DNA of 64,000 bases from an uncultured Acidobacteriota bacterium (GCA_963822445.1 CAWGHO010000003.1:256001-320000); one strand, 5' to 3'; positions 2,583-22,189 are shown, counted from the first letter of the stretch. Made by a program: numbers and translations. The notes: a model not told the origin generated them from the sequence alone.

Positions 2583-5183
2583 ATGACTGTCGCCGCAGGC
2601 TCGAAGCTTGGCCCCTACGAGATGCTCGCCCCCCTCGGCGCAGGCGGAATGGGCGAGGTGTGGCGTGCGCGCGATACGCGCCTCGATCGCAGTGTGGCCA
2701 TCAAGATCCTGCCGCAGGCCTTCTCGTCCGACTCGAAGAGCAGGCTCCGGTTCGAGCGTGAGGCCAAGGCCATCTCGCAGCTCAATCACCCGAACATCTG
2801 CTCCCTTTTCGACGTCGGACACGACAGCGGCACCGACTATCTGGTCATGGAGCTGATGGAAGGCGAGTCGCTCGCCGACCGCATTGCTCGCGGTGGTGCT
2901 CTTCCTCTCGCGGAGGTAATCCGCTATGGCGCGCAGATCGCGGACGCGCTCCATGCCGCGCATCGCCAGGGCATCGTGCATCGCGATCTCAAGCCTGGGA
3001 ACATCATGCTCACGCGCACCGGCGCGAAGCTGCTCGACTTCGGGCTGGCTCGCACCGCGGAGACCGCCGCCAGCCACGATGGGCCGACGGCGGCGTTCAC
3101 AGCGCAGCGCCCGTTGACCGAGGAGGGGACGATTGTCGGGACGATCCAGTACATGTCGCCGGAGCAGCTCACCGGCAACCCAGCCGACCATCGCAGCGAC
3201 ATCTTCGCCCTCGGTGTCGTCCTCTACGAGATGGTCACCGGACGGCGCGCATTTCCCGGAAGCACGCGCACGAGCGTGGTCTCGGCGATCATCGCGGCGC
3301 AGCCGGCTCCGCTGTCCAGCGTGCAGCCACTTGCTCCGCACTCGCTGGAGCGCTTGATCGCCGCGTGCATCGCCAAGGATCCAGAACATCGATTGCAGTC
3401 TGCTCACGATGTCGGTGTGCAGTTGCGATGGCTCGAAGGCAGCGGCGAAGAAGACCGCGCATCGACGGCAGTCCGGCGGCCGTCGCTCGCGTGGAGAATC
3501 GCAGCGCTCTCTGCTCTGGCAGCGCTGGCGATTCTTGCGTATTTCCCGGTTCGCGATCGCGGGAAGGCGCCGGTTCAGCCCATCCGATTCACGATCTCGC
3601 CTCCGCCGCAGACGAATTTCAACGGTATGCCGGCTATTTCCGCCGATGGAACCAGGATCGTTCTGAATGCGCAGTCGGCTGACGGGAAGTCGATGTTCTG
3701 GCTGCGCACGATCGATCGTCTCGAGGTGCAGCCGATCAAGGGAAGCGAGAGCGCGAACTTTGCCTTCTGGTCGCCCGACGGGCAGCAGATCGGATTCACG
3801 GCACGCGGCAAGCTGTGGCGATTCAATATGGCCGACAACACGGTCAACGCGATCTGCGACGTGCCGGATGAGCTGCCGGGCGGCGCGACGTGGAATCGCA
3901 ACGGGGTAATCGTCTTCTCCTCCGCCGGTGCGCTGCATCGGATCTCCGCTTCCGGAGGTGCAGCCGTGCGGCTGGGAGTCACCCGGCCGGGTGAATCGAC
4001 GAGCTGGCCGTGGTTCCTGCCGGACGACGATCACTTCCTTTTCGACGCGTCATTGACGAAAGATCAGGGGATCTACGCAGGCTCGCTTTCGTCGAATGTC
4101 CGGAAACTGATTCTCAAATCGGATGACATCGTTAACGCTCGCGTCGCGTACGCCGCCGGGTACATTTTCTACAACCGCGGACCGGAGCTGTACGCGCAGA
4201 AGTTCGACGCGGATAAGCTGGAATTGACCGGCGAGCCGCAGAAGATCGACGACAACGTCGAGTTTTATGCCCCGGGCCGCTCGGCGTTTTCCGTATCGCA
4301 GACCGGCACGCTCGTTTATCACCCCGCGTCTGATCCGGTCGTAGATCAGCTGGCCTTCGTTGATCGCACCGGCGTCGAGCTGGCCAGCGCCGGTCCGCTG
4401 GCAGCGTACGACAGTTTCGAGCTGTCACCCGATGACCGAAAACTGGCGTTCACGCGCTGGGGAGCGGTCAGCGCAGTCTGGATGCTCGACATAGCGCGGG
4501 GCAGCCTGACACGACTCTCCTTTGAACCATGGTCTGGGTTTCCCTACTGGACCGCCGATGGCCGGAGCATTGTCTACGCAGCCGCAGTCGATACACCGCC
4601 GAACCTGTTTCTCAGGACAGAGAACGGCTCCATTCAACGCCTGACCACGATGGCGGCCGATCACTACCCGACCGACGTGACGCCCGACGGTAAGTCCGTG
4701 ATCGCGGAGATCACCAGGCCGCCGAACGGCATGGACACCATTCTGGTCCCGTTAGCCGCGCCGAATCGCCACGTTCCCCTGATCGCCACGAAATTCGACG
4801 ATCGTGAGGCCGTGGTCTCGCCCGATGGCGCCTGGCTCGCGTACGAGTCGAACGAGAGCGGCCAGTGGCAGGTGTACGCAACCCGTCTGACACCGGGGGG
4901 CAGCCGTGTGCAGATCTCGACCACCACCGGCATCCGCGCGCGCTGGAGCCGCGACGGACGCCGCCTCTACTACGTCGACATGAGCCAGAAAAAGCTCATG
5001 GAAGTGACGATCTCCATCGTCGAGGGCGAGCTCCAACCGTCACTTCCCACGCCGCTGTTCAGCTATGACAGCACCAACTACGACGTAACCCGCGACGGCC
5101 GCTTCCTCATCGCCAGACGGCAACTGAACCCCGACGCCGCACCGATGCACGTGTTCATGAACTGGCCCTCGACTGTGCGCTGA
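2583..5183 (+). CDS. Hanks-type Ser/Thr kinase with TM segment and TolB/PD40 beta-propeller
   Basis: Kinase motifs LGAGGMGEV, VAIK, HRDLKPGN, DFGLA, GTIQYMSPE, then a hydrophobic helix and WSPDG/SPDG repeats. Confidence 0.95.
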   Translation: MTVAAGSKLGPYEMLAPLGAGGMGEVWRARDTRLDRSVAIKILPQAFSSDSKSRLRFEREAKAISQLNHPNICSLFDVGHDSGTDYLVMELMEGESLADRIARGGALPLAEVIRYGAQIADALHAAHRQGIVHRDLKPGNIMLTRTGAKLLDFGLARTAETAASHDGPTAAFTAQRPLTEEGTIVGTIQYMSPEQLTGNPADHRSDIFALGVVLYEMVTGRRAFPGSTRTSVVSAIIAAQPAPLSSVQPLAPHSLERLIAACIAKDPEHRLQSAHDVGVQLRWLEGSGEEDRASTAVRRPSLAWRIAALSALAALAILAYFPVRDRGKAPVQPIRFTISPPPQTNFNGMPAISADGTRIVLNAQSADGKSMFWLRTIDRLEVQPIKGSESANFAFWSPDGQQIGFTARGKLWRFNMADNTVNAICDVPDELPGGATWNRNGVIVFSSAGALHRISASGGAAVRLGVTRPGESTSWPWFLPDDDHFLFDASLTKDQGIYAGSLSSNVRKLILKSDDIVNARVAYAAGYIFYNRGPELYAQKFDADKLELTGEPQKIDDNVEFYAPGRSAFSVSQTGTLVYHPASDPVVDQLAFVDRTGVELASAGPLAAYDSFELSPDDRKLAFTRWGAVSAVWMLDIARGSLTRLSFEPWSGFPYWTADGRSIVYAAAVDTPPNLFLRTENGSIQRLTTMAADHYPTDVTPDGKSVIAEITRPPNGMDTILVPLAAPNRHVPLIATKFDDREAVVSPDGAWLAYESNESGQWQVYATRLTPGGSRVQISTTTGIRARWSRDGRRLYYVDMSQKKLMEVTISIVEGELQPSLPTPLFSYDSTNYDVTRDGRFLIARRQLNPDAAPMHVFMNWPSTVR

Positions 5184-5384
5184 TTCGAAGTGCGATCCCT
5201 ACGCAATCACTCGCAGCCCAGGGCCGGGCCGTACATCCGCATGGAGCGCCCGGGCCGAAGCGACCGCCGATCTTTCCGTTCAGCGCGACCATGGCAGGTG
5301 ATTGCGCTACGTCGGGAAATGCGGAAGCTTCTCCCACTTGTAAGAACGCGAGGCACCTGCTTTTCGTTGGCAGTCCTCGCTTCT

Positions 5385-5969
5385 CATGAGCATCGCCATC
5401 GGCTTTCTGTCGAACAGCGCGTGCGACGGAGATAACCCGGCGCTCACCGATGCGATGGCACGCGTGCGCGCTCGCGGCATCGTCCTCGTCGCCGCGAGCG
5501 GCAACGACGCGGCGACGAAGGGAACCGTCCGCCCGCCTGCATCTCGGGGGTACTTTCCGTCGGCGCGGTCTACCCCACGAATCTCCCGTCGGGTTCGCTG
5601 CTGGGATGCACCGACACGCCCGCGGAAGTCGATCGTGTCACGTGCTTCTCGAACTCCGCGGCGCAGCTCGATCTTCTCGCGCCCGGTTATCGCGTTCAGT
5701 CGCCGGCGAAGAATGGTGGAGTCTCGAACGCCAGCGGAACGTCGTTCTCAGCGCCGCATGTGGCCGGAGCCGTGGCGGTGCTACGGCAGATCGATCCACA
5801 GTTGACGCCCGACGCCATCGAGGAGCTGCTCGAGTCGACCGGACGTCCGATCGTCGACAGCCGCAACGGCATCACCACGCCGCGCCTCGACCTCTTCGCG
5901 GCGGTGATGAAGCTGCGTCTGAATGCGACGCCGGCGGGGCTGCGGCGCCGCCCTGTTCGGCACTGACGG
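5385..5969 (+). pseudogene. Direct repeat copy 2: 5'-truncated, frameshifted subtilase fragment
   Basis: Starts mid-gene (MSIAIGFLS). AASGND is intact, but there is a 1-nt deletion near 5525 (ggaaccgtcc versus ggaatccgtcc). SGTSFSAPHVAG follows in the shifted frame. Confidence 0.87.
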
Positions 5970-5981
5970 CCGTCCTGACGA

Positions 5982-6722
5982 TCATCGGACGAGTGATCGC
6001 CTGCGAGGCGGCGGAGTGATGGCTGGCGCGCCGATGAACCAGAGTGCGACGAGGCGGCGCTGCAGCGGTGAGGGATTCGGTCCCGACCCATGCGCGAGGT
6101 GCGGATGGAAGACGACCGCGTCGCCTGGATCGAGCGGTATCAGCGTTCGACCGCTCTCGTCGAAGACGCCTGCATTGGTGTCGGACGTGTCGTAATCGAA
6201 TTTCACGGCGCCGCCGGCATGCGAGCCGGAGAGAACCTCGAACCCGCCGTTCCCCTCGTCCGCGCGATCGAGGGCGATCACCAGATTCGCCCCGCCGTAC
6301 TTCGCGATCGCGTCGCGCTGCTGCCATGCGACGAACGCCGCGTCCTGGTGCCAGGGAAAGCCAGTGCCGACCCTGGGCGCCTTCAGGTTGATCTGATCGA
6401 CGATCCAGCGCGGCGAGGTCACGCCGACCGACTCCATGAGCTTCAGCACCCGCCTGTCGTTGCGAAGGAGGGCCACCTCCCCGTTGGCGGACGACGCAAA
6501 CGTGATCTTTCGCAGCGCGCCGGGAGCGATCGCGGTCTCACCTCGGCGCCCGCTGGCAGTCTGCACCTCGTAACGCGCGCCATCGATCTCAGCGTCGGCC
6601 AGCAGGTGCGCCCCCTTCGACGCCAGCTCATCGCTTGCCGAGCGAAGAACTTCGACCTCTCGCGGTGTGAGGAAGAGCTGAACCAGCGCCCACCCATCGC
6701 GGTCGAACCGCTCGCGGATCAT
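5982..6722 (-). CDS. Phytanoyl-CoA dioxygenase (PhyH) family Fe(II)/2-oxoglutarate oxygenase
   Basis: Motifs FDRDGW, NLKAP, PWHQD (HxD), ALD.A...NGG, PGDAVVFH...HGSGPN...RR. Start placed at ATG 6722 rather than at the longest-ORF start. Confidence 0.88.
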   Translation of the reverse strand: MIRERFDRDGWALVQLFLTPREVEVLRSASDELASKGAHLLADAEIDGARYEVQTASGRRGETAIAPGALRKITFASSANGEVALLRNDRRVLKLMESVGVTSPRWIVDQINLKAPRVGTGFPWHQDAAFVAWQQRDAIAKYGGANLVIALDRADEGNGGFEVLSGSHAGGAVKFDYDTSDTNAGVFDESGRTLIPLDPGDAVVFHPHLAHGSGPNPSPLQRRLVALWFIGAPAITPPPRRRSLVR

Positions 6723-6883
6723 CGGTGCACCGAGCGCGTGCGATGACTGCTCCATCACGCGCGATTGTGCCATCACGCTCGATGGTGAGGGACGAACTGA
6801 GGGCGGAAGGTCGCACCTTGATGCGGCAGCGTGACTCCGGCAAGCCAAGCGGAGGTGTGACCCGTAACTTCCGGCGCTCTCGC

Positions 6884-6932
6884 GGAATCTCGAACGCCAG
6901 CGGAACGTCATTCGCGGCGCCGCTTGTGGCCG
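6884..6932 (+). repeat. Third, short subtilase remnant covering the catalytic-Ser motif
   Basis: ggaatctcgaacgccagcggaacgtcattcgcggcgccgcttgtggccg (GISNASGTSFAAPLVA) resembles 877-925 and 5718-5766. Confidence 0.7.
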
Positions 6933-7053
6933 ACGGTCAGCCTGCCGAGCTTGACGAAGCCGGGACCTCACGCGGCGGCAGATCCTCAACCACACCTCGG
7001 GTGTTAGTCGCGAATCGTTCCCACCCGGCCCGCCGTGGCAAAGCCTTACTAAT

Positions 7054-8124
7054 TCAATGGACACGGACTTCAGCTGCGGACAGCCACGACTGCAGGGCGG
7101 CAACTGTTACATACCGCGCGCCGGTGCCGTGGTACTGCGCGACCAGCTCTGACCACAGCACGTTTCGCAGCGCGCGTTCCCACAACAGGGCAATCGCGCG
7201 AGACCGAAACGATAGAGCGATAACGCAATCCGACAGTTGGACTTCGCGCGTAAGAATGATGGCGCGAACGTTCTCTCTTAAAGGAAGACCAACCCGCGGA
7301 AGGAAGATCACGTCGCCCGATACACGGCCGCGCTCAATTCCATGTACTCGGCCGAGTGTCGCTGGGTTTACGTCACGCGCCAGAGACGAAAGATCTGTGG
7401 AGTGCACGTACGACACTCCCTGCTTGGCGCGTTGTGCCTCGTAAACGGGAAGGCCTCCACGGATGAGCGCCACGGATGAGCTACTCATCATGCCGCGCTT
7501 GCTACCATCTGCAACGGTAACGTGACTTTTGCGCGTAAAGCGCGCGACCAAAGCGTTCGCGCGCGTGCCACGGAAGGTGCTGTTCCTTAGTTGTGCCACA
7601 AAGGTAGTGTCATAGCCGCGACTCACTATAGATCTGGCTTGCGCATCAAGCTCCGAGTACATGAGCGATTCTGGTAGCACCGCGCAACAGACGGTTGGCA
7701 ACGCACGCGTAAGCACAGTCAAGACATGAGCCATCGCCACGGAGCAGCGGCCATTGAAATCCTCTAGGCGTACTATTACGCCTTTTGTTGCCGCCATGCT
7801 GAAGGGTGGGTTCAGGAGCGCCAAGTCCGCGCCTATTCCGACGCGTCCGGCGTGAAGCCGCGCCCACGACTTCTCGTCAAGTGCGTCCCCGCGGGAAAGA
7901 GTCCAGTCGGGATACCTTCGCCTCAGCCGCGAAATCGCAGCGTGATCGACATCGATGCCGACGCAGCGGACGTTCGGCAATATGTCTTTCGCGGCGGCTA
8001 GAAGACTTCCATCTCCGCAAGTGCTGTCGAGGCACCGCTCGCTTGCTGACTCACCTGCGGCCTCGACGACGGAACGAGCGACAGCAGGCGGCGTGTAGTA
8101 TCGATCAAGTTCAGTTGGCCACAT
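7054..8124 (-). CDS. N6-adenine-type DNA methyltransferase with a short C-terminal domain
   Basis: Motif X YYTP, motif I LDSTCGDGSLL, GIDVD, motif IV LNPPF and later VLPES, in gamma-group order. Confidence 0.82.
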   Translation of the reverse strand: MWPTELDRYYTPPAVARSVVEAAGESASERCLDSTCGDGSLLAAAKDILPNVRCVGIDVDHAAISRLRRRYPDWTLSRGDALDEKSWARLHAGRVGIGADLALLNPPFSMAATKGVIVRLEDFNGRCSVAMAHVLTVLTRALPTVCCAVLPESLMYSELDAQARSIVSRGYDTTFVAQLRNSTFRGTRANALVARFTRKSHVTVADGSKRGMMSSSSVALIRGGLPVYEAQRAKQGVSYVHSTDLSSLARDVNPATLGRVHGIERGRVSGDVIFLPRVGLPLRENVRAIILTREVQLSDCVIALSFRSRAIALLWERALRNVLWSELVAQYHGTGARYVTVAALQSWLSAAEVRVH

Positions 8125-9058
8125 GGGATGGTTTTAACGTGTAGAAATGAACGAGACCGATACCCTGTGTTCGGCCCGCCTTCCGAACCGGGTGGTCGTA
8201 CATCAATTCAGTCGAGTCCGGAAATCTCAGCGCATAGCAGACCGCGCCGACAGCATGTGGTTTGGTGCCAATAGGAGCGATGTACATGTACTTGCCACCG
8301 CTGTCGCGCTGTATGTCGGCGAGTGTTTCGAACGTCTCGAACGGACAGCTCGCGGCAGCAATTCGGATATTGCCGTGGGCTCGTGTTTCTTTCAAAAACT
8401 CAGAGTTGCTCGCATACGTTACCTGCGGATACTCGACTCTAAATCCTGGTATTCCGATGATCGCGTACACCGGCGGGAGGGGATCTAGCGTGAGCGCAAC
8501 ATGAGTCGCTCGTTTGCCCTCGAACCCGAGTAGTGCGACAAAAATAGCGTCCTGTTCCTCCTCGGGTCCGACTAGCTTAGCGAACCCGGGTAGCGGCTCG
8601 ATGCCGCGAAAGCTTTCACTCAAATCGTACTCCGTGCGCGAGGTTGGATTTGGGTGGGGGCGGTAAAAGTCTGGCTCTGCGTAGACGATGCGCAGCGTCT
8701 GGAGTGCGGCGAAGCTTGCTCGGAGCAGCGGCGCCCAAACATGATGAGCTAAGCCAGACACGTCCACATACGCGCCGGTGAAACCGTCGAAGAGCGCCGT
8801 GAGCCGATCCGAGTCGTGAAGCCCTATCTCGAAGGGCGCACCGGAACTACGCCGTGCGACCACACTGTTAGGCGTCGCACTAACAACCTCGACGCACTGC
8901 TCGGGTCGCTCGTGAAGGCACTCATCCCAGAGCGGTGCTCGGCTGCGCACTTCTGTACCGCCCGAGCTAAATATGTACCCCGCGTCAGGATCGAGATCTG
9001 ACCAACGCGGTTGCCAAACGCGCAGCGTCTTGCCAGCAGCCGCTCGCGTGCGCGTCAT
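8111..9058 (-). CDS. Uncharacterised protein, possibly CARF-like Rossmann fold
   Basis: Motifs VYAEP.Y, LLGFEG.R, GIPGFR, IAPIGTKP, LMYDHP. The gene overlaps both neighbours. The fold call is inference. Confidence 0.55.
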   Translation of the reverse strand: MTRTRAAAGKTLRVWQPRWSDLDPDAGYIFSSGGTEVRSRAPLWDECLHERPEQCVEVVSATPNSVVARRSSGAPFEIGLHDSDRLTALFDGFTGAYVDVSGLAHHVWAPLLRASFAALQTLRIVYAEPDFYRPHPNPTSRTEYDLSESFRGIEPLPGFAKLVGPEEEQDAIFVALLGFEGKRATHVALTLDPLPPVYAIIGIPGFRVEYPQVTYASNSEFLKETRAHGNIRIAAASCPFETFETLADIQRDSGGKYMYIAPIGTKPHAVGAVCYALRFPDSTELMYDHPVRKAGRTQGIGLVHFYTLKPSHVAN

Positions 9059-10935
9059 GTGGATGTTGGGCCCGCGTGCACTGATTCATAGAACGAAGAG
9101 AACATCGCGAGCTGCGTTGGCAAATCGTCTGTGGAAGTGGGCTGACCTCCCATTAGTGTCGCTAAAGCCCGCCGTGGGTTTTCGAAGATGTCTAGGAGGG
9201 CCTCCGCGGGGAATGTGCAGCGGCGCTTGCGGCGATGTGAGTACTCGAAGAACGGTGCAAAAATCGGGTGAATACGAAACTCATCATCGCGCATCTCACG
9301 TTGGGTCGTCGCCTTCGTCCTCGGCGTCGCTTCGAACGCGAGGTTAGACACACCCTCATGCAATAAGGCCAGCACGCGCATGCGCGCGTCTTCCGCGCCG
9401 GACACGACAAACGAGTTCCGCTCCGGCGACTTGCCGACGGGATCCCTTGCGAACTCAAAAAACACCTTACCAAGCGCGAGAACTAAACGTTTGATCTCGG
9501 AGCCGTGTTCGCTGAGACCTTCGAGTTGGTCTAACCGGCGCTTCCCGACTGCTCGAGCGGCTAAGGTTTGATGCTCCGGAGGCAATTGGCCCGCGTAAGC
9601 GGCCGATGCGTCGGGATCACTCGCGAGTTGCGCGATCGCTTCATCAATAAGTTCGATGAAATATCGTATATTGCCGGAGGCCAGTCCAGTAAATGTCCGC
9701 GCACCACTGAAGTACTTGCGAATCCGTGCGCCCTTGCGTCCTTTCGACAACCAGAAGAGGCTCGCGTAACCGTAGTTCCCGAGCCGAGTAGCCCACTGAT
9801 CGGGATTGTTCTTCCAGTCTCTCGCCAGATCCGTCGCCGTCCCCTTACCGCCTTCGGACCAATACTTGACGAAGTAAAGTTCGTTCTTAGGAACGTCCTT
9901 AGCCCACCGGATGAGGCCGGTGTCATTAGTTGCGATGATCTCATCAAGAACGTCCTCCGCGACCCGAGAGCATCCGAGCTTCTCAGCTTCAATCGAAAAA
10001 GACATTTCAGGTAGAAAGTCGTCCAGACTATCGGCGACTTGCAGGCCACGGTCTTGGGCGCGCTCTAGCCGGTGCTCAACGACCTGTTTCGCAAAAACTT
10101 CGAAGCTCTCCTCGCCGATATCGATCTCCGAATAATCGTCGGGCGTAGCGAGTACGTCGTTCGTGCCGCTCGTTGCACGCGAGCGCAACCCGCCACGCTT
10201 GACGCCTACTTTGTACGAAAGCGGGGGCTCTGAGTGCTTTATATAGGTGTTAAGGATCGCTTGCTGGTAGTCGAGAAGATTTTCATACTCGTCGATGCAG
10301 CAAAATACCGTTTTCCCAGTCGCGAGTGGTGACGATATGAGCGTTTCAACGAAGTGCCGCAACGGCGCCTCCTGCACGGAGAATACCGGCCGTTTCGCCT
10401 GCGTCGGATTGTTAACGTAGAGTTCCAGCGCCACGAGACTGGCATTCAGACACTTCAGGAACCCCCCGCAGTCGGTTATATCGTGCACATCGAAACTGGC
10501 TGCAACCGAAGCAATGTTGAGCGGCGTGGAACCATCGCGCTGCTCCAACCATTGTGCAAGGCGACAAAGTTCGGTTACGCAAAGAATATTAAAATAGTGC
10601 GCGAAAGCCTTCTCCCAATCACTCGTCGGAAGCTCAGTGCCTTGAAACGCGCGAACTCGATTCTTATTGATCCGGATGTAGATCCCGAGGTAGGGGAGTG
10701 TGCCAGCGGGCAGGCCTTCGGATGACAGACGGGCCGCCGACGCGTCGAACCTCAGAGAACGCAGCGACGTGGTCTTGCCAGTACCGCGCCCACCGATCAG
10801 AAAGCAAGGCCGTGCGACTTCTAGTTTCGGAAAATAGGGCGGGGCGATGAATAGGTCGCCGAAAAGCGCCGCGGACCACTCGGCCCGATAGTCGGAAAAA
10901 AAATCGCCTAACCTACGTAGCTCGCTAATACTCAT
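9055..10935 (-). CDS. P-loop ATPase (ORC/CDC6-like or STAND-related)
   Basis: Walker A GGRGTGKT, Walker B FCCIDEYENL, and ASGNIRYFIEL. The start at 10935 overlaps the upstream stop codon (ATGA). Confidence 0.85.
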   Translation of the reverse strand: MSISELRRLGDFFSDYRAEWSAALFGDLFIAPPYFPKLEVARPCFLIGGRGTGKTTSLRSLRFDASAARLSSEGLPAGTLPYLGIYIRINKNRVRAFQGTELPTSDWEKAFAHYFNILCVTELCRLAQWLEQRDGSTPLNIASVAASFDVHDITDCGGFLKCLNASLVALELYVNNPTQAKRPVFSVQEAPLRHFVETLISSPLATGKTVFCCIDEYENLLDYQQAILNTYIKHSEPPLSYKVGVKRGGLRSRATSGTNDVLATPDDYSEIDIGEESFEVFAKQVVEHRLERAQDRGLQVADSLDDFLPEMSFSIEAEKLGCSRVAEDVLDEIIATNDTGLIRWAKDVPKNELYFVKYWSEGGKGTATDLARDWKNNPDQWATRLGNYGYASLFWLSKGRKGARIRKYFSGARTFTGLASGNIRYFIELIDEAIAQLASDPDASAAYAGQLPPEHQTLAARAVGKRRLDQLEGLSEHGSEIKRLVLALGKVFFEFARDPVGKSPERNSFVVSGAEDARMRVLALLHEGVSNLAFEATPRTKATTQREMRDDEFRIHPIFAPFFEYSHRRKRRCTFPAEALLDIFENPRRALATLMGGQPTSTDDLPTQLAMFSSFYESVHAGPTST

Positions 10936-11846
10936 TGATATTTCACTAGTCGAATCCAAGAACCAGGTCCTTTCGCCCAAAGGAGCGGAATAGTGCTGTC
11001 CGGAACACCATGTTCAAACGCGAACAATAAACCGAGCTCGTGAAACCCAAACAGCGGACCGTCGCCGCTTTGGAGGAAAGGCTTCAAGTCCAGTGATCCT
11101 GCGTGGCGCTGCAAGAACGCTCGTAAAGCGGTCTGAATATCGTCCATGGGCGGGTCGAGTTGGGGCGCCTGGAGTGTTTGTACTGAGTACGTGGCGTCGA
11201 GCACGTGCGTCGATACGATCGTGATTCCCGGCGCGGCGGTTTGAGCATTGCGGATCGCCGTGTCCGTGGCTATTAGCGCGAGGCAGAACGCGTCAAACGG
11301 CCGCGCAGCATGGGCTTCTTTAAAAGACTGGGGCCCGTTGCCGGGATGTGGTCGGTTCCAAGTCTTGATGAGTTGCTGCCCACTCCCGAGGAAATCGTCG
11401 ACAAACACCACCGGGCGACCTGTTGCTTTGACCTCCGCGAGCGCTTTACCGGGTTCGAAAAAGCGATCATCGTCGAGTTCAATGAGGTCCCGGAGCTTCC
11501 GGCACATTGTTTTGCCTGAATCGGTCGGACGCGGATTCTCGCCTTCGACCGGTGCGAATACAAGACTCTGGAGAAAGGTAACGGGATCGCCGGGCTGCGT
11601 GATCCTTCCTAGAAGGACATCATCCTCGAACCGGTTATACGCCGCCACGAGTAGACGGTCTGATGCCCGGTCGGCGTAGAAGATGAAGTTATCTAGAATT
11701 ATCGCGGCGAGTAGGCGCTCATGGTCGTCAGTGAAGTTGGTCAGCCACGCTGCCGGCCGAAGTCTAGGCTCGGGAGCCCACAACCCATTGTTCTTGAGCG
11801 CTTCGCATTTCGCGAGGACGCTCTCAACGTACAGATCGGCTCGCAT
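10932..11846 (-). CDS. Phosphoribosyltransferase-like protein of the conflict-system type
   Basis: PRPP-binding loop VVFVDDFLGSGQQ, N-terminal WLTNF, and C-terminal FEHGVPDSTIPLLW. Confidence 0.78.
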   Translation of the reverse strand: MRADLYVESVLAKCEALKNNGLWAPEPRLRPAAWLTNFTDDHERLLAAIILDNFIFYADRASDRLLVAAYNRFEDDVLLGRITQPGDPVTFLQSLVFAPVEGENPRPTDSGKTMCRKLRDLIELDDDRFFEPGKALAEVKATGRPVVFVDDFLGSGQQLIKTWNRPHPGNGPQSFKEAHAARPFDAFCLALIATDTAIRNAQTAAPGITIVSTHVLDATYSVQTLQAPQLDPPMDDIQTALRAFLQRHAGSLDLKPFLQSGDGPLFGFHELGLLFAFEHGVPDSTIPLLWAKGPGSWIRLVKYQ

Positions 11847-12080
11847 GCGACAGCATTCTCCTCTGCGCCGCTAGTAACGGCAAGAGTTGCTTTCTACCAT
11901 TCTTCTGATGAGATCTCGGAAGGCTCGTCTCGCGTGGTGCCGGGTGTGTAGATCCTGTTGCGACCCGGCTCGGCACGCATCAATGAGTGGCTCGGCGGCA
12001 CGCCAGCCGATCTGCGGGCACGGATCTTCGGACCAGGCCTGAAGAGATTGACGTCGCTAGCCGAACAAGCTACGACGATC

Positions 12081-12477
12081 ATGGCTGGAAACGCAGATGG
12101 AGGCGGTAGTGGACCCGGGGGGCGCGGGCGTGGCTTCCAGCCAGGGTTCGGCCCCGAGTTCACCGTGAAACAAGACGCGACGACGCGTGACGATCACGCG
12201 CGGCGGTCAGGCCGGTGAGTCAACTCCGCTCACATACAAACTCGACGACTCGGAGAGCAAGAACACCATAACCCGCGACGGTCAGCAGATCGAACAGATC
12301 TCGACGGCGAAGTGGGAGGGGAACACGTTGGTGATCGTTACGCAGCTGAACTTCCAGGGCAACACGCGGGAAATGCGCCGCGTACTGTCGCTGGACGGCG
12401 GCAACCTCCTGATCGATCAGACCACCCCCGGGCGCAACGGCGACACGACGGTCAAGGTCGGCTTCAAGAAGGGTTAA
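12081..12477 (+). pseudogene. 5'-truncated, frameshifted small beta-barrel (lipocalin/FABP-like) protein
   Basis: A Gly-rich stretch ...FTVKQDATT continues as TITRGG...YKLDDSESKN...AKWEGNTLVI...VGFKKG only after a frameshift near 12186. No N-terminal signal region is present. Confidence 0.55.
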
Positions 12478-12531
12478 CGTGCTCTACGTCGGAGCCGACG
12501 CCGCGCTGCGGGCGTCGGCTTTGGCCCGCCT

Positions 12532-15186
12532 CTACAGGAAGTTCTCGACCAGCATCAGATCGTCGGTAGAGCTGTCGACCTTCGAGTAAAAGAGCACGAG
12601 CCCGTCGCGCGTGGCCGTCGGCACCCATTGGACGTGGCCGAGGTTTTCGGCGACGGTGTGCGTTTCCTCGGTGGCGAAGTCGAGAAAGCGCAGGCGGGCC
12701 TGACCGCCCGCGCGATCGAAATAATAGATTCCGGCATCAACCGGAACGAAGCCCCACCCCAGAAGACCGTCGACGACCCGTTTCGGCGAGCCGGAAGCAA
12801 ACGGAAGCTGCCAGAGCACGCCGTTCACGTCGTCGACGTGCGTGTAGTACAGCGAACGGCCGTCGGCTGCTTCGAGGCCGTACCAGGCGCCGCGGGTCGT
12901 GATCTGCGCCGCGGGTCCGCCGCCGAAGGGCATCTTCCAGATCTGATATTCGCCCGTGCGTGTCGAGCAGAAATACATCCAGCGTCCATCGTGCGAGAAC
13001 GTCGCGCCCTGATCGAACGCCGGATGGTCTGTCAGGCGGCGCGGTTGCCCACCCGTGGACGGCATCATGAAGAGATCGAAGTTGCCCGGTTGATTCGAGC
13101 CGAAAGCGATCCAGCGGCCGTCGTTGGACCAGCGCGGGCCGCCGGTGGCGTGGGCCTTCATGGACGTGAGTTTCACGGCGTTCGCGCCGTCGGTGTCGGA
13201 CGTCCAGATCTCCCAGTCCCCCGAACGGGTCGACGTGAAGGCCATGCGCTTTCCGTCCGGGGAGAGTTGCGCGTGAATGTCCATCCTGGTCGACGCGATG
13301 GCAACGCGCGGAGGCGCCCCGGTGGTGACACCGGGCCTGCTCATGTCGATGCGCCAGATGTTCAGGTCCGTGTAGCTCCACGCGTACACGAGCCGACTTC
13401 CACGATTCGTTGTCGCGGGCGCGATGGCCGCGAGATACCCGTCTTCACCGGCGAAGGGAAGCTTCACCGGGGGATCGTCTTCGAACGCGCTCACACGCCA
13501 GAGTCCACTCTTCGCCGAAACCAGGATCTCTTTTCCTTCGGGCAGCCACACGGGGTGCTCGCCGTTGAGGTCTCTAGAGACGACCAGACGCGATGCTCCA
13601 GCGGGCGTCACGCCGTTTCCGAGCGGCAGCGCGTGGATCTCGCCGATGCCCCAGTCCAGAGCGCGCCGGAAGATGAGAGTCCGTCCGTCAGGCGAGATCG
13701 CCGGGCTGGTGTGCGAAAGCGCTGTTGCCGGCGGTGCGGTCAACGGCCGTTTCGCCCCGGTCTCGATCGAGACGACGTAGAGCGCGTCGCGTTTTCCATC
13801 GCTCGCTGCATCGGTGATGACCAGACAGGTGCTGTCGGGACACCAGCTGATGTAGGCGGCTGGAACGTCCGACGTATTGTGCACGCGGACTTCCGTGACT
13901 TTTCGCTCCGGACCGCCGAGGGGCGCGACGAGTCTCAGCTCGTGCACGTTCTCCTTGATCATCCCGTTGACACCTCGCAGGAAGGCGATCCAGCGTCCGT
14001 CCGGCGACCAGGCAGGATTGAAGTCGCTGAGCGGATCGGTCGTCAGGCGGAGGGGCGTGCCCGAGCCGATCATTTGAACGTAGAGATCCTCGTTGTCAGC
14101 CGCCGGACCGTTCCAGGTGAATACGACCTGATTGCCATCGGGTGAAAAGGCGGGATAACGCTCCGCGCCGGCGAAGGTCGTAAGGGCCGCGGCATTGGCT
14201 CGGCTCGATTCTTCGGGGCGCGTGGTGCGGCCTGCAAACGCGATCCACAAGACTGCCGTCAACAGCGCGGCAGCGAGGATCGCCGCGGGCCACCATCGCT
14301 TCCCGTCGACGCGGCGCGCCGGACGGCTCGACGCCGTCTCCGATTCGGCGCGGAGATCTTCGAGCGCCGCTTTCAGATCCAGCATCGTCTGGAAACGGCG
14401 GGAGGGATCCTTCCGAAGACAGCGAAGGATCACCTTTTCGAGATCGACAGGGATGCTGGCGTTGACCTGCCGCGGGGGCGGAGGTTCGTCGTGGAGGAGG
14501 TTGTGGAGAATCGCGACGCGACTGTTTCCGACGAACGGTCTCCGTCCCGTGGTCATCTCGTAGAGGACGATGCCGAGGCTGAAAATGTCCGATCGCGCGT
14601 CCACCTTCAGCCCCTCGGTCTGCTCCGGCGACATGTAGGCGACGGTCCCGACGATCACTCCCTCTTCGGTGAGCGGAGCGGCCAGCGTGGGTGCATCGGG
14701 CGACAGGTCGGACGGCTCGGTCAGTTTGGCCAGACCGAAGTCCAGGACCTTGCAATGACCGTCGCTCGCGACCATCACGTTCGACGGCTTCAGATCGCGA
14801 TGAAGAATGCCCGCGCCGTGTGCGGCCGCAAGTCCGTCGGCGATCTGCATGCCGTACTGCAAGGCGAGCCGAATGGGCAGACCCTCGGCGGGAATGACCG
14901 CACTGAGCGGCCGGCCCTCGACGTGTTCCAGGACGAGGAAGTCCACTCCATCATCGGAGCGCACGTCGTGGACCGTGACGATGTTGGGATGGTTCAACGC
15001 GCTGGCGGCACGGGCCTCGCGGATGAAGCGCTCCTTCCGATTCGATTCCGCGACTTTCTCCGGAGGAATGATCTTCAGGGCCACCACGCGGTTGAGGTAC
15101 GTGTCACGGGCCCTGTACACGACGCCCATGCCGCCTTCACCGAGCTTCGCTTCGATGAGGTAGCGATCGAGTGTGCGGCCAATCAT
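12532..15186 (-). CDS. Ser/Thr kinase with TM segment and TolB/PD40 beta-propellers
   Basis: LGEGGMGVV, HRDLKPSN, DFGLA, YMSPE, and many FSPDG/WSPDG repeats. Start at MIGRTLDRY. Confidence 0.95.
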   Translation of the reverse strand: MIGRTLDRYLIEAKLGEGGMGVVYRARDTYLNRVVALKIIPPEKVAESNRKERFIREARAASALNHPNIVTVHDVRSDDGVDFLVLEHVEGRPLSAVIPAEGLPIRLALQYGMQIADGLAAAHGAGILHRDLKPSNVMVASDGHCKVLDFGLAKLTEPSDLSPDAPTLAAPLTEEGVIVGTVAYMSPEQTEGLKVDARSDIFSLGIVLYEMTTGRRPFVGNSRVAILHNLLHDEPPPPRQVNASIPVDLEKVILRCLRKDPSRRFQTMLDLKAALEDLRAESETASSRPARRVDGKRWWPAAILAAALLTAVLWIAFAGRTTRPEESSRANAAALTTFAGAERYPAFSPDGNQVVFTWNGPAADNEDLYVQMIGSGTPLRLTTDPLSDFNPAWSPDGRWIAFLRGVNGMIKENVHELRLVAPLGGPERKVTEVRVHNTSDVPAAYISWCPDSTCLVITDAASDGKRDALYVVSIETGAKRPLTAPPATALSHTSPAISPDGRTLIFRRALDWGIGEIHALPLGNGVTPAGASRLVVSRDLNGEHPVWLPEGKEILVSAKSGLWRVSAFEDDPPVKLPFAGEDGYLAAIAPATTNRGSRLVYAWSYTDLNIWRIDMSRPGVTTGAPPRVAIASTRMDIHAQLSPDGKRMAFTSTRSGDWEIWTSDTDGANAVKLTSMKAHATGGPRWSNDGRWIAFGSNQPGNFDLFMMPSTGGQPRRLTDHPAFDQGATFSHDGRWMYFCSTRTGEYQIWKMPFGGGPAAQITTRGAWYGLEAADGRSLYYTHVDDVNGVLWQLPFASGSPKRVVDGLLGWGFVPVDAGIYYFDRAGGQARLRFLDFATEETHTVAENLGHVQWVPTATRDGLVLFYSKVDSSTDDLMLVENFL

Positions 15187-15298
15187 CGGAAGACGACGAT
15201 TGTATGCTCTCGTTATACTGCTCGCCGGTCGCAATCCAATTCGAGCCAATCAAAACGAGTAAATCCGACGGGTGTTGAAGCCCGCCGGCGGTAAGACC

Positions 15299-17896
15299 AT
15301 GAGCCCGACGATCACTTCCGGACAACGCCTCGGGCCCTACGAGATCGCCTCGCGCCTCGGCGCCGGCGGCATGGGCGAAGTGTGGAAGGCGCGCGACACG
15401 CGCCTCGACCGCAGCGTGGCCATCAAGATCCTTCCCGCCGCGCTCGCGCAGGACGCGCAGTTCAAACAGCGGTTCGAGCGCGAGGCGAAAACCATCTCCC
15501 AGCTGAATCATCCGCACATCTGCACGCTCTACGACGTCGGCGACGACTACCTGGTGATGGAGCTGATCGAAGGGGAGTCGCTCGCCGAGCGGCTCGAGCG
15601 CGGTGCGATGCCGTTGGCGGAAGTTCTCAAATACGGCGCGCAGATCGCCGAGGCCCTCGATCGCGCACATCGCGCAGGAGTGGTCCATCGCGATCTGAAG
15701 CCGGGCAACGTGATGATCACGCGCACCGGCGCGAAGCTGCTCGACTTCGGACTCGCCAAAGCGGCCTTCGATGATGCCGACAACGGCATGACCGTGCAGA
15801 AGCCGCTGACGCAGGAAGGCACGATCCTCGGCACCTTTCAATACATGTCCCCGGAGCAGCTCGAGGCCGCCGAGGCCGACGCGCGATCGGACATCTTCGC
15901 CCTCGGCGCACTGCTCTACGAGATGGCCACCGGCCGCCGCGCGTTCGAAGGGAAGTCGAAAGCTTCACTGATCGCGGCCATCGTCAAAGAACAGCCGCCT
16001 CCAATGTCGGAAGTGCAGCCGCTCACGCCACCTGCGTTCGAGCGTCTCGTTTCCGGGTGTCTGGCGAAGGACCCTGAGGATCGCTGGCAGAGCGCGCACG
16101 ACGTCGCGCAGCAGCTTCGCTGGATCGGCGAATCGGGGTCGCAGGTGAACGTCGCGGCGCCGCTTGTTGCGCAACGGAAGAGGCTTAACCGGTTGGCGTG
16201 GACCGTCGCCGCGATCGCCGGGATCGCGGCACTCGCGGCGGGCGCGCTTGCGTGGCGGGCGATGACGCGCGTCGAATCTCCGCAGGTCATGCGCTTCTCC
16301 GCGCCCAACACGATCGCCGCGCGGCCCGCCGACAACTACGGAATCATCGCCGTCTCTCCCGACGGCCGGGAGATCGTCTACGCCGCGTCCCTCAACGCGA
16401 CGAAGATGCTCTTCCGCAGAGCGATCGATCAGTTCGAGGCGAAGCCGATTCCCGGCACCGAAGGCGCCGTGCAACCGTTTTTCTCGCCGGACGGTAAGTG
16501 GGTCGGTTTCGTCGCGCGGCACAAGTTGATGAAGGTCGCGCTCTCGGGCGGACAGCCGATCGAGCTCGCGCATGCTGCGCTTCCCCGAGGTGCCGAGTGG
16601 CTCGAGGATGACACGATCGTTTTCTGCCCCTACTTCTACGGCGGAATCGACCGCGTCCCGGCGTCCGGCGGCACAGCCACTCCGGTCTCCAAAGTCGATC
16701 GTGCGGCGGGAGAGCGAAGCCATCGCTGGCCGCATGCGCTCCCGGGCGGGAAAGTGGTGCTGTACTCGGTGGGCCTCGGGTCGTCCTGGGACAACGCAAA
16801 AGTGGTTGCACAACGGCTCGATACCGGCGAACGGAAGGTCGTCCTCAACGGAGGATGCGACGCGCGCTACGTTCCGACGGGTCACCTCGTGTACGTGCGC
16901 GGGAACTCGTTGTATGCGGTTCCCTTCGACGCCGAGGCGCTCGAAGTGCGCGGCCAGCCGGTGGAAGTGCTGAGCGGCGTCGCCAATCACAGCGCCGGCG
17001 GTGCGGAGTTCGCGTTTTCGCGCAACGGCATGCTCGTCTACTTCTCGCCGGGCGTCGGCGGTGACGAAGGAGGGCAACTCATCGTCGTGAACCGTCGCGG
17101 CGAGCAGCAACCTGCCCGGTTGCCGGCCGGCGCGTTCTCGAGTCCCGGCTTTTCGCCGGACGGCTCCGCAATCGCTGCCGTGCGCGACTACAACATCTGG
17201 GCGATCGACACGATCCGCGGCACGAGCACCCGCGTGGCGTCGGGCGCACGTGTGGCGTGGCCGGTATGGTCGAGCGATGGCTCCCACATCTATTACTCAT
17301 CGGAGCGCTTTGGATGGTGGCAGGTCTTTGCGCGAGCCGCCGACGGCAGCGACGAGGAGCGGCAGATCTCGAAGTCAGACGCCGCCGTCGTTCCGTTGGC
17401 GATGTCTCCTGACGGCCGCGAGATGCTCGTCCGCATCGATCGCAAAGAAACGGCCGGCGATGTCGACCTCATGGATCTCGAAGGACGAATCCGCCCCTTC
17501 GCGCGGTCCGAAGCGGACGAGCTTCCCGGAGCGTTCTCGCCGGACGGCCGGTGGATCGTGTATTCGTCGGACGAGTCGGGACGCGCGGAAATCTATGTCC
17601 GTCCGGCGAGCGGCGCGGCCGGCCGCTGGCAGATCTCGATCGAGGGAGGCATCGACCCGCGCTGGGCACTGCCGGACGAGATCGCCTACCTGCAGGGCAG
17701 CAGGATCATGGCCGTCACCGTGAAGACGGCGCCGTCGTTTTCGGTCGGGACGCCGAGGCTTCTCGTCGATCGCAATGCATCGGATTTCGATCTCACCCGC
17801 GACGGACGCATCCTCATCGCCGAGGCACCAGACGCGGCATCACCCGGGCGGCTGAATGTCGTGGTGAATTGGTTTGAAGAGTTGCGGCGAAGGTAG
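15299..17896 (+). CDS. Ser/Thr kinase with TM segment and TolB/PD40 beta-propeller (paralog of 2583-5183)
   Basis: LGAGGMGEV, HRDLKPGN, DFGLA, YMSPE, FFSPDG, and a C-terminal VVVNWFEEL. Confidence 0.95.
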   Translation: MSPTITSGQRLGPYEIASRLGAGGMGEVWKARDTRLDRSVAIKILPAALAQDAQFKQRFEREAKTISQLNHPHICTLYDVGDDYLVMELIEGESLAERLERGAMPLAEVLKYGAQIAEALDRAHRAGVVHRDLKPGNVMITRTGAKLLDFGLAKAAFDDADNGMTVQKPLTQEGTILGTFQYMSPEQLEAAEADARSDIFALGALLYEMATGRRAFEGKSKASLIAAIVKEQPPPMSEVQPLTPPAFERLVSGCLAKDPEDRWQSAHDVAQQLRWIGESGSQVNVAAPLVAQRKRLNRLAWTVAAIAGIAALAAGALAWRAMTRVESPQVMRFSAPNTIAARPADNYGIIAVSPDGREIVYAASLNATKMLFRRAIDQFEAKPIPGTEGAVQPFFSPDGKWVGFVARHKLMKVALSGGQPIELAHAALPRGAEWLEDDTIVFCPYFYGGIDRVPASGGTATPVSKVDRAAGERSHRWPHALPGGKVVLYSVGLGSSWDNAKVVAQRLDTGERKVVLNGGCDARYVPTGHLVYVRGNSLYAVPFDAEALEVRGQPVEVLSGVANHSAGGAEFAFSRNGMLVYFSPGVGGDEGGQLIVVNRRGEQQPARLPAGAFSSPGFSPDGSAIAAVRDYNIWAIDTIRGTSTRVASGARVAWPVWSSDGSHIYYSSERFGWWQVFARAADGSDEERQISKSDAAVVPLAMSPDGREMLVRIDRKETAGDVDLMDLEGRIRPFARSEADELPGAFSPDGRWIVYSSDESGRAEIYVRPASGAAGRWQISIEGGIDPRWALPDEIAYLQGSRIMAVTVKTAPSFSVGTPRLLVDRNASDFDLTRDGRILIAEAPDAASPGRLNVVVNWFEELRRR

Positions 17897-21488: not shown

Positions 21489-22189
21489 TCACCTCGTTTG
21501 CGAACTACGAATACCCAGCTCTGATGTTCGTGAGGATATTCGCGAAACCCTTCGTGCGGCGGCTCGCTCCACGTCGCGAGGTCGATAGAGACGAGATCGA
21601 ATCCGGCGCCGGCGACCAGCGCCTCGACGTCTTCCCGGGCATAGAAGCGATAGTAGAAGCGGTCGCGATAGATCCACTCCTCCCCGGAGACGTTCTTCAT
21701 GTCGATGCCGCGCGTCGAATCGCCGAGCGCGAACACGCTGCCGAGGAGCAGCCCGCCCGGAGCGGTGATGCGCAGCAATTCGGCGATCGCCGCGCCGACG
21801 TCGCGCAGATGGCCGAGCAGGTCCCAGCAGAAGACGAAGTCGAACTGATCGTCGGTGAACGACGTGGAAAAGACGTCGGTCTGCAACGTGACGCAGTTGC
21901 GGATCCCGTTGCGGCGGCAGAGCTTGGCCGCGATGCCGAGGGCGTTGGCAGAGGAGTCGGCTGCGACGACGATCGGCACCGCCGCCGCGAGTGTGGGGAT
22001 GTTCCTGCCATCGCCGCACGGCAGATCGAGCGCGATCCGCGCGCCTGCTTCCGCGGCCATCGAGGCCGCCCGCTGCACGTGCGGGACGGCAGCTTCGCTC
22101 CAGAGCACGGCTGACATTTCGAGAATGTACGAGTCATCCCACGCGGACTTCGAGCGCTCGTCGATGCCTTCGAGTTTCGTGCTCATCAT
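21485..22189 (-). CDS. Class I SAM-dependent methyltransferase
   Basis: LDLPCGDGRN, AADSS, FDFVFC.D.L.HL, LRITAPGG. ATGA overlaps with both neighbouring genes. Confidence 0.88.
   Translation of the reverse strand: MMSTKLEGIDERSKSAWDDSYILEMSAVLWSEAAVPHVQRAASMAAEAGARIALDLPCGDGRNIPTLAAAVPIVVAADSSANALGIAAKLCRRNGIRNCVTLQTDVFSTSFTDDQFDFVFCWDLLGHLRDVGAAIAELLRITAPGGLLLGSVFALGDSTRGIDMKNVSGEEWIYRDRFYYRFYAREDVEALVAGAGFDLVSIDLATWSEPPHEGFREYPHEHQSWVFVVRKRGE

Follow-up and report, generated by a model that had tools for sequence, protein, structure and literature searches.

A predicted defence cassette encoding a phosphoribosyltransferase, an ORC-CDC6-like ATPase, a CARF6 protein and a DNA methyltransferase-like protein in an uncultured Acidobacteriota bacterium

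Among the effectors of bacterial immunity, those whose names carry the suffix CE, for 'conflict effector', are predicted to target nucleotide pools, and these names trace to Nicastro et al. 2023, according to the available part of the study that describes the PUA-Calcineurin-CE-HAD system (PMC12871103). That system, from Escherichia coli ECOR28, is reported there to be switched on by N6-methyl-deoxyadenosine monophosphate (m6-dAMP) from degraded Dam-methylated host DNA, and its authors add that related sensor-effector pairs are linked to N6-adenine methylases without restriction enzymes (PMC12871103; both statements come from the accessible portion of the text). Here we describe a four-gene cassette at positions 7054-11846 of a stretch of 64,000 nucleotides from an uncultured Acidobacteriota bacterium (GCA_963822445.1 CAWGHO010000003.1:256001-320000), the whole of which is called the window below. 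The cassette encodes a phosphoribosyltransferase (PRTase), an ORC-CDC6-like AAA+ ATPase, a protein of the CARF6 family and a DNA methyltransferase-like protein (the methylase), and it is intact and belongs to a class of bacterial immune system that has been predicted by computation.

As far as the available account of PUA-Calcineurin-CE-HAD goes, that system resembles the cassette in combining a nucleotide-binding sensor with a CE-class effector of the nucleotide pool and in its connection with DNA adenine methylation without a restriction enzyme; it depends on this methylation and acts by abortive infection. In the same account its PUA-like sensor is fused to the effector, its phosphatases act on deoxynucleoside triphosphates (dNTPs), it has no ATPase and the methylation is that of the host Dam enzyme. 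In the cassette, by contrast, a CARF6 protein, modelled as bound to an AAA+ ATPase, is the predicted sensor, a PRTase serves as the predicted effector, and the operon has a methylase gene of its own.

The predicted class of systems with PRTase-CE, HD-CE and Calcineurin-CE effectors accommodates the cassette directly. Its PRTase and ATPase match the Pfam families PF24390 and PF24389 far above the cut-offs, its CARF6 protein is recognised by PADLOC, and all four features examined for this ATPase+CARF6+CE class were found, namely a PF24389 ATPase, an adjacent CARF6 gene, an upstream CE effector and a linked methylase. Experimental work on the class was not found in the literature searched, many subscription papers lying outside its reach, and the searches made returned no solved structure or experiment for the ATPase or the CARF6 clade; three of the four proteins belong to families that exist only as computational predictions. 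An earlier reading of this DNA, made from the sequence alone and referred to here as the original prediction, had stated that no experimentally characterised system with this make-up was known. The searches made agree with this, but the make-up itself is known as a computationally predicted class. Nicastro, Burroughs, Iyer and Aravind probably described this four-gene arrangement, including the methylase, in 2023, as the adjacent numbering of the Pfam accessions suggests, and the CARF census of Makarova et al. 2020 reportedly contains the CARF6 clade.

PRTase effectors of the same broad family as that of the cassette occur in type III-A retrons (Retron-Eco11) and in ShosTA and PsyrTA, and PRTase-CE is named as a partner of type III-A retrons in the accessible part of the literature. 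The cassette differs from all of these in having no reverse transcriptase, multicopy single-stranded DNA (msDNA) or DprA-like antitoxin, control apparently lying with the ATPase-CARF6 pair and the methylase; in a search for a type III-A retron, neither the cassette nor the flanks yielded a reverse transcriptase domain, and 5000-13500 gave no Rfam match. BREX, DISARM and MADS, as presented in the available parts of their descriptions, are similar to the cassette in having a DNA methylase in an operon with a large ATPase of the ORC/Cdc6 clade and no recognisable nuclease. Of BREX, which is marked by the PglZ phosphatase, the PglX methylase and BrxC, no model was present among the PADLOC matches of the four proteins, and the flanks contain kinases and a dioxygenase. 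Membership in MADS was considered and rejected, as the NCBIfam model MADS2 scored 17 bits against a cut-off of 720 and PADLOC gave only a weak mad8 similarity at the P-loop and a generic mad2 methyltransferase similarity. The mad2 match (3.4e-13) covers the generic part of the methyltransferase and is equalled by that of an unrelated methyltransferase in the window (1.4e-12).

Classical restriction-modification systems (types I-III) would bring a nuclease or helicase, and searches of Pfam, PADLOC and NCBIfam at E<=0.1 found no such domain in any of the four; the claim that the operon has no nuclease was thus correct. With the CARF effectors of type III CRISPR systems, such as Can1, the cassette shares the CARF fold (Z up to 13.1) and the conserved lysine of a G-T-K loop, but it is without Cas10 or another cyclase and without an effector domain fused to CARF, the partner of the CARF6 protein being an AAA+ ATPase. 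No cyclase (Cas10 or CD-NTase) was found in the cassette or its flanks, nor was Cas10 found above the cut-off in the genome to which the window belongs.

The four genes form one conserved unit

All four genes are encoded on the minus strand. The PRTase gene (10932-11846, 304 aa), encoding the predicted effector, comes first in the direction of transcription and is followed by the genes for the ATPase (9055-10935, 626 aa from the ATG at 10935), a predicted switch or scaffold, for the CARF6-family protein (8111-9058, 315 aa), a predicted ligand sensor, and for the N6-adenine DNA methyltransferase-like protein (7054-8124, 356 aa). The tetranucleotide ATGA at 10932-10935, read directly in the sequence, is common to the PRTase stop codon and the ATPase start codon, the ATPase and CARF6 genes overlap by 4 nt (9055-9058) and the CARF6 and methylase genes by 14 nt (8111-8124), and an AGGAG motif lies a few bases 5' of the PRTase ATG. 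The open reading frame (ORF) of the ATPase spans 9055-10980 and starts with a TTG at 10980; since alignments with homologues begin at about residue 16-24 of this ORF, translation more probably starts at the ATG at 10935. G+C content is 0.55-0.60 per 500-nt bin across 7001-12000, and 0.61-0.69 in the neighbouring bins on each side. Both the co-directional, overlapping arrangement and the lower G+C content had been pointed out in the original prediction, and the ORF coordinates, the sequence itself and the base composition agree with it.

Close relatives were collected from one genome per species, which yielded 23 loci in which the ATPase has a relative that is 47-64% identical to it. In 21 of these all four genes are adjacent and in the same order, and the methylase of the 21 complete loci is related to that of the window over its full length at 32-49% identity. 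The remaining two are incomplete: in L001 the contig ends inside the CARF6 gene, and in L022 the ATPase gene is frameshifted and the last 1173 nt have no CARF6 or methylase match. Since 21 of 23 related loci share the order, it is more than a chance arrangement, and the four genes form one conserved unit; the original prediction had staked itself on the methylase being conserved with the other three genes, which it is. The hosts belong to Burkholderiales, Rhodocyclales, Pseudomonas, other Gammaproteobacteria, Myxococcota and Planctomycetota, with one Eisenbacteria genome, and close homologues are present in culturable Pseudomonas, Paraburkholderia and Kangiella. Statements on L054 and L025 rest on the unpublished genomes G049 and G805, as does part of the PF24389 survey of the window's phylum and of the same-genus comparison; no count given here depends on these two genomes unless this is stated with it.

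The wider family was surveyed at 20 divergent places. In the first ten loci 90 of 150 ORFs were scanned, those nearest the ATPase, and in the second ten 71 of 105, L068 having been dropped as a duplicate of L069 together with outlying ORFs. The ORF next to the ATPase encodes a CARF6 protein in 14 of the 17 divergent loci tested (not in L059, L062 and L063). The effector slot of these 14 loci is occupied by PRTase-CE (L055, L064, L065, L071, L072), by a metallophosphatase (L056, L067, L069, L070), by HD-CE (PF24391; L057, L066), by a TIR domain fused to the ATPase (L058), by a kinase fused to the ATPase and accompanied by SIR2 and a ParA-like gene (L061), or by an N-terminal extension without an assigned family (L060). 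A DNA methylase gene is adjacent in 10 of the 14 ATPase+CARF6 loci, and the enzymes fall into four Pfam groups (N6_Mtase-like, N6_N4, D12 and C5): N6_N4 (PF01555) in L055, L058, L060, L061 and L064, D12 (PF02086) in L056 and L067, C5 (PF00145) in L057 and L066, and the type found in the window in L065. The ATPase and CARF6 protein are therefore a constant core, the effector slot and the methylase family being interchangeable among relatives, and since the methylase families are unrelated to each other, what is conserved is DNA methylation as a function, not one protein. The ATPase family itself is sparse. Of 401 genomes from the window's phylum, 21 have PF24389 above the cut-off (about eight full-length matches; both counts include the window's own genome and the unpublished G049), and of 401 Pseudomonadota genomes 11 have it at E<=1e-8.

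The cassette appears to be horizontally acquired, to which its low G+C also points, and its relatives have been spread horizontally. An integrase or transposase gene is present no more than 3.8 kb away in 9 of 22 close loci (122 flanking ORFs scanned), relatives are carried by plasmids of Burkholderia gladioli, Paraburkholderia and Moraxella osloensis, and one, on a contig whose deposited record is that of an Acinetobacter phage, has a tRNA-Val beside it. All four same-genus genomes compared resemble the window only as far as about 6730-6776, in the PhyH gene just before the cassette, and neither the cassette nor its right flank was found in them. The region is therefore variable, and the comparison gave no clean insertion site.

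The four proteins and a modelled complex

The four domain calls of the original prediction (PRTase, ATPase, CARF-like and DNA methyltransferase) are upheld by Pfam, PADLOC and structure matches, and the short motifs that it had singled out (VDDF, GKT and NPPF) are found in the PRTase, the ATPase and the methylase, respectively, at conserved positions. The PRTase matches PF24390 (PRTase-CE) at 8.8e-39 and the retron-type PRTase_III-A models of PADLOC at 4.7e-15. An N-terminal helical region (about residues 1-100) precedes a PRTase core with the sequence VVFVDDFLGSG, in which D150 and D151 of the VFVDDF motif are invariant in 22 aligned sequences; G154/S155/G156, S110/G111, R119, H279 and D283 are conserved in at least 90% of the same set. 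Because the DD, the GSG, S110/G111 and R119 are conserved, the features that bind 5-phosphoribosyl 1-pyrophosphate (PRPP) are intact. PRTases normally build nucleotides from PRPP; turning on the PRTase effector of Retron-Eco11 is associated with PRPP depletion, and ShosT, in which PRTase and pyrophosphatase activities are coupled, disrupts purine metabolism (all three statements being drawn from the available parts of the sources). By analogy with the Retron-Eco11 and ShosT enzymes, we infer that the PRTase of the cassette acts by depleting PRPP or disturbing purine metabolism.

The ATPase matches PF24389 (ORC-CDC6-like) at 1.4e-115, with 387.7 bits against a cut-off of 27, and the match spans positions 2-569 of the 571 in the profile. 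Its Walker A motif reads GGRGTGKTT, and G53/K54 of this motif and D215 of Walker B are invariant in 30 sequences (numbering of the 626-aa protein); conservation along the sequence shows moderate dips only. Sequence searches of the Protein Data Bank (PDB) with the PRTase and the ATPase gave no match at E<=1. Comparison of an ATPase profile with the PDB gave matches at the level of the P-loop only (E>=0.001), so that no solved-structure relative was found by sequence, and a search of the ESM Atlas with the C-terminal half of the protein gave no usable match. ORC/Cdc6-clade ATPases, to which BrxC belongs, bind DNA and anchor BREX, in the words of the accessible part of the literature.

The CARF6 protein matches the PADLOC model PDLC01913 (CARF6) at 1.5e-87, and a Pfam search with it gave no match. 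Its AlphaFold2 (AF2) model, with a predicted local distance difference test score (pLDDT) of 92.6, has two alpha/beta domains and no effector domain. In a structure search independent of Foldseek the top 17 VIA rows were all CRISPR-ancillary CARF-type proteins or VC1899, with Z of 8.4-13.1, and the top rows included Csm6, Cam1, Can2, Card1, Can1, Csa3, Cami1, Cdn1, Cad1 and ring nucleases. For most of these CARF-type proteins the matching part lies between about residues 168 and 298. Can1, a protein with two CARF domains, aligns to residues 25-292 of the model, suggesting a tandem CARF arrangement. Across 15 divergent CARF6 members, K266 in a G-T/S-K loop is the only invariant residue after the start methionine, and D99 and Y126 are nearly invariant. 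A likeness to KaiC was rejected: KaiC headed the first Foldseek list, with TM of 0.19-0.23 and a root mean square deviation of about 20 A, which we regard as generic Rossmann-like similarity.

A model of the ATPase-CARF6 complex scored 0.80 in each of three runs, the best control scoring 0.00. Among solved complexes 58 of 80 attain this mark, as do 2 of 110 mismatched pairs; both counts apply to the present case only approximately, as our own alignments were used. The three runs share at least 77% of contacts, and the pLDDT of the partner is at least 83. On the CARF6 side the modelled interface consists of the stretch 153-164, where the clade is nearly invariant, and on the ATPase side of residues 88-101 and 164-179 and also of positions next to Walker A (50 and 55) and to Walker B (216 and 219). 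The modelling supports binding of the CARF6 protein by the ATPase. The AAA part of the PADLOC fusion model CARF6--CARF_STK_AAA matches the ATPase of L061 at 6.9e-15 and that of the window weakly, at 0.061; given this fusion-model match and the TIR and kinase domains fused to the ATPase N-terminus in relatives, all three parts, effector, ATPase and CARF6 protein, probably act in one complex.

The methylase consists of a class I S-adenosylmethionine (SAM)-dependent methyltransferase domain followed by a C-terminal recognition-type domain. Its Pfam methyltransferase matches are weak and all below the cut-off; its AF2 model, with a pLDDT of 91.6, has its best whole-length Foldseek matches in M.TaqI (query-normalised TM-score, TMq, of 0.53-0.59), M.BseCI (0.61) and CamA (0.52-0.60). 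D33, G37, G39 and the NPPF motif at N105-F108 are invariant in 56 sequences. The SAM motif, NPPF and the C-terminal recognition-type domain, which are the features of M.TaqI-like enzymes of the gamma class, are all present, and the protein appears to be an M.TaqI-like N6-adenine enzyme with DNA as its likely substrate. Mean column identity is 0.30-0.59 in the C-terminal domain and 0.24-0.52 in the catalytic domain, and no hypervariable specificity region was seen in the column conservation; such steady conservation of the C-terminal domain is not expected from an arms race over recognition sites.

Mechanism and rival explanations

We consider it highly probable that the cassette is a defence system of the class described above, in which the PRTase is the effector and the methylase an integral part. 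The fuller explanation that we favour, to which we nevertheless give rather less than even weight as a whole, is that of a horizontally acquired system directed against phages or other mobile elements, with a trigger derived from the methylome and a PRTase effector; for the trigger taken by itself, a methylome-derived nucleotide, our view is tentative and a little more reserved still. In this mechanism the methylase would methylate the host chromosome at a fixed motif, and the CARF6-ATPase pair would stay off until the CARF6 protein bound a small nucleotide cue, which might be methylated deoxynucleotides or short oligonucleotides from phage-degraded host DNA. Ligand binding would alter the nucleotide state or the assembly of the ATPase, and the PRTase-CE, once activated, would consume PRPP or attack nucleotides, so that the nucleotide supply would collapse and the infection abort. 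A methylated-nucleotide trigger is modestly favoured because it provides the CARF sensor with a ligand in a cyclase-free operon, because the C-terminal domain of the methylase is as conserved as the catalytic domain, and because the same conserved core is found together with N6-adenine, N4/N6 and C5 methylases. In its boldest form, which we regard as doubtful, CARF6 would be the first cyclase-independent CARF sensor, binding methylated (oligo)nucleotides from destroyed host DNA, and the ATPase would convert this damaged-self signal to PRPP depletion; were this true, the CARF6 pocket that goes with each of the interchangeable methylases in the relatives would be adapted to another modified base.

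Several observations weigh against this explanation or parts of it. To our knowledge, the CARF ligands known so far are cyclic oligoadenylates and not methylated mononucleotides. A cyclic signal could be supplied from elsewhere in the genome, as another contig carries one SMODS-like match (CD-NTase family; G000:C1:501712-501951, 42.2 bits with its neighbours in frame). The rRNA adenine methyltransferases KsgA and METTL5 match the catalytic domain of the methylase about as well as DNA methyltransferases do, and some sources label its homologues 'predicted RNA methylase'. In 4 of the 14 divergent loci (L069, L070, L071 and L072) no methylase was present among the ORFs scanned. Within the window, PADLOC recognised no defence genes beside the cassette, and neither a mobile-element gene nor a target-site repeat was found at its edges. 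The strict linkage of the methylase, finally, also fits a model resembling restriction-modification.

That model, which follows the logic of BREX and DISARM and was the one put forward in the original prediction, holds that the ATPase, with CARF6 as its regulatory subunit, recognises unmethylated incoming DNA and switches on the PRTase. We see it as a real if distinctly lesser possibility. If loss of methylation meant autoimmunity, one would expect what is observed, a methylase linked in 21 of 23 close loci with a start that overlaps the end of the CARF6 gene; the exchange of methylases of unrelated families among relatives is also in its favour, as is the DNA binding by ORC/Cdc6-clade ATPases, including the BREX anchor, that is described in the available part of the literature. 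On the other hand, it leaves the CARF sensor with nothing to sense, one conserved core can hardly read the unmethylated sites of N6-adenine, N4/N6 and C5 methylases alike, no hypervariable region is seen in the methylase and the ATPase dips are only moderate, and a methylase was not seen in those 4 of 14 divergent loci. Of the two readings that are live, methylation as a mark of self DNA is only one; sensing of methylated nucleotides suits the CARF sensor and the non-variable recognition domain at least as well. Two further proposals made at the outset, an ATPase acting as a switch and a PRTase that replaces a nuclease by depleting PRPP or nucleotides, both fit the swapped effector slot and the related PRTases, as far as the available descriptions of the latter go.

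The proposal that the PRTase makes a signal has fared less well. It belongs to a reading, in our view quite improbable, in which the PRTase makes a PRPP-derived messenger that CARF6 receives, the real effector being the ATPase or encoded elsewhere. PRTases do normally build nucleotides from PRPP, as the accessible sources state, and CARF is a messenger receptor fold; against this, the PRTase slot is swapped for the hydrolases HD-CE and metallophosphatase, and also for ATPase-fused TIR and kinase/SIR2, which is the pattern of an effector slot and argues against signal synthesis, and the PRTase family serves as effector in retrons, according to the parts of the retron literature available. An addiction module based on post-segregational killing, with the methylase as 'antitoxin', the PRTase-ATPase-CARF6 set as 'toxin' and phage defence as a secondary effect, is unlikely but somewhat better placed, given copies on plasmids and beside integrases or transposases and one copy that, on a Burkholderia gladioli plasmid, has a pair of DUF4433 and macro-domain genes as its neighbour. 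The copy in the window, however, is chromosomal with no mobile-element genes beside it, and the addiction reading is compatible with the defence readings and leaves the nucleotide-sensor fold unexplained. Least probable of all, and very improbable in our estimation, is a housekeeping operon without a role in conflict, for example one for nucleotide salvage with an RNA methyltransferase. The annotation of some methylase homologues as 'predicted RNA methylase' and the lack of defence genes adjoining the cassette in the window would suit it, but the system occurs in only about 2-5% of sampled genomes, scattered across phyla, and has low G+C, links to mobile elements and swappable effectors and methylases, and synteny with the four same-genus genomes stops at the cassette edge.

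The cassette thus poses the question why a methylase, whatever its family, should go together with a nucleotide-sensor fold and a metabolic effector, without a nuclease or a cyclase. If it reads unmethylated DNA, it would be a restriction-modification system in which nucleotide starvation takes the place of 'restriction'. If what it reads are methylated nucleotides set free from degraded host DNA, as we favour, the methylome-derived danger signal would extend to CARF sensors, and the system would bring its own methylase for the signal.

Genomic setting and accessory genes

The original prediction had placed the cassette between gene remnants, which is true of the right flank but not of the left. 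The left-hand neighbour, a gene for a PhyH-family dioxygenase, appears to be intact. On the right the plus-strand ORFs 11958-12218 and 12187-12477 overlap and look like a single small gene that a frameshift near 12187-12218 has disrupted; this gene (11958-12477), situated between the start of the cassette and the next kinase gene, may be a pseudogene or may reflect a sequencing error. Three paralogous genes for Ser/Thr kinases with PD40 (TolB-like) repeats bracket the cassette, at 2583-5183 (+), 12532-15249 (-) and 15272-17896 (+). Their PADLOC matches, which are strong for PD-T4-6 and mad6 and include PglW, were judged to be generic protein-kinase similarity, and we do not count them as defence genes. 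Farther away, at 22186-25632 (-), a protein of 1148 aa combines a NACHT NTPase with a C-terminal FGE-sulfatase domain; it has no PADLOC match and could be a STAND-type sensor. No tRNA was found in 1-30000 and no insertion-type repeats were found in the flanks, to which the lack of Rfam matches in 5000-13500 may be added, and a promoter scan gave no sites where 1.7 were expected and seven terminator-like sites where 5.8 were expected.

Genes connected with nucleotide metabolism adjoin several of the relatives. A ThyX gene (flavin-dependent thymidylate synthase, PF02511, about 5e-49) adjoins the CARF6 gene in L055 (6033-6950), L060 (10948-11925) and L061 (8699-9625); all three loci carry N6_N4 methylases, and the association may point to the dUMP/dTMP pool or to base modification. 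A dUTPase/dCTP-deaminase-like gene lies directly beside the four-gene cassette in L065 (6743-7177), L078 (4398-5063) and L054 (551-1225, in the unpublished genome G049). In L078, which is the plasmid p4 of Moraxella osloensis, this gene is co-directional and upstream of the cassette and is itself preceded by a gene for a NACHT protein, and in L065 a dGTPase-like HD gene also adjoins the cassette.

On the Burkholderia gladioli plasmid (L080) a pair of genes for DUF4433 and macro-domain proteins is found just upstream of the cassette, at 2761-4478. This is presumably the make-up of DarT-DarG. The gene table of the same record has a 1.2-kb gap at the expected position of the methylase gene. The branch without a methylase (L071:6562-11996 and L072:6167-13943) combines PRTase-CE with a divergent ATPase, a longer CARF6 protein (PDLC01910/01916) and a PfkB-family sugar kinase; L071 forms part of a conjugative element that encodes a relaxase and a coupling protein, and L072 also has a HAD-like protein, a NADAR gene and a kinase-PEGA-FGE-sulfatase protein beside the system. 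In L058 (7409-12427) the gene for the TIR-ATPase fusion is interrupted by an ISL3 transposase and is followed by the CARF6 and N6_N4 methylase genes, with a RAMP-family gene nearby.

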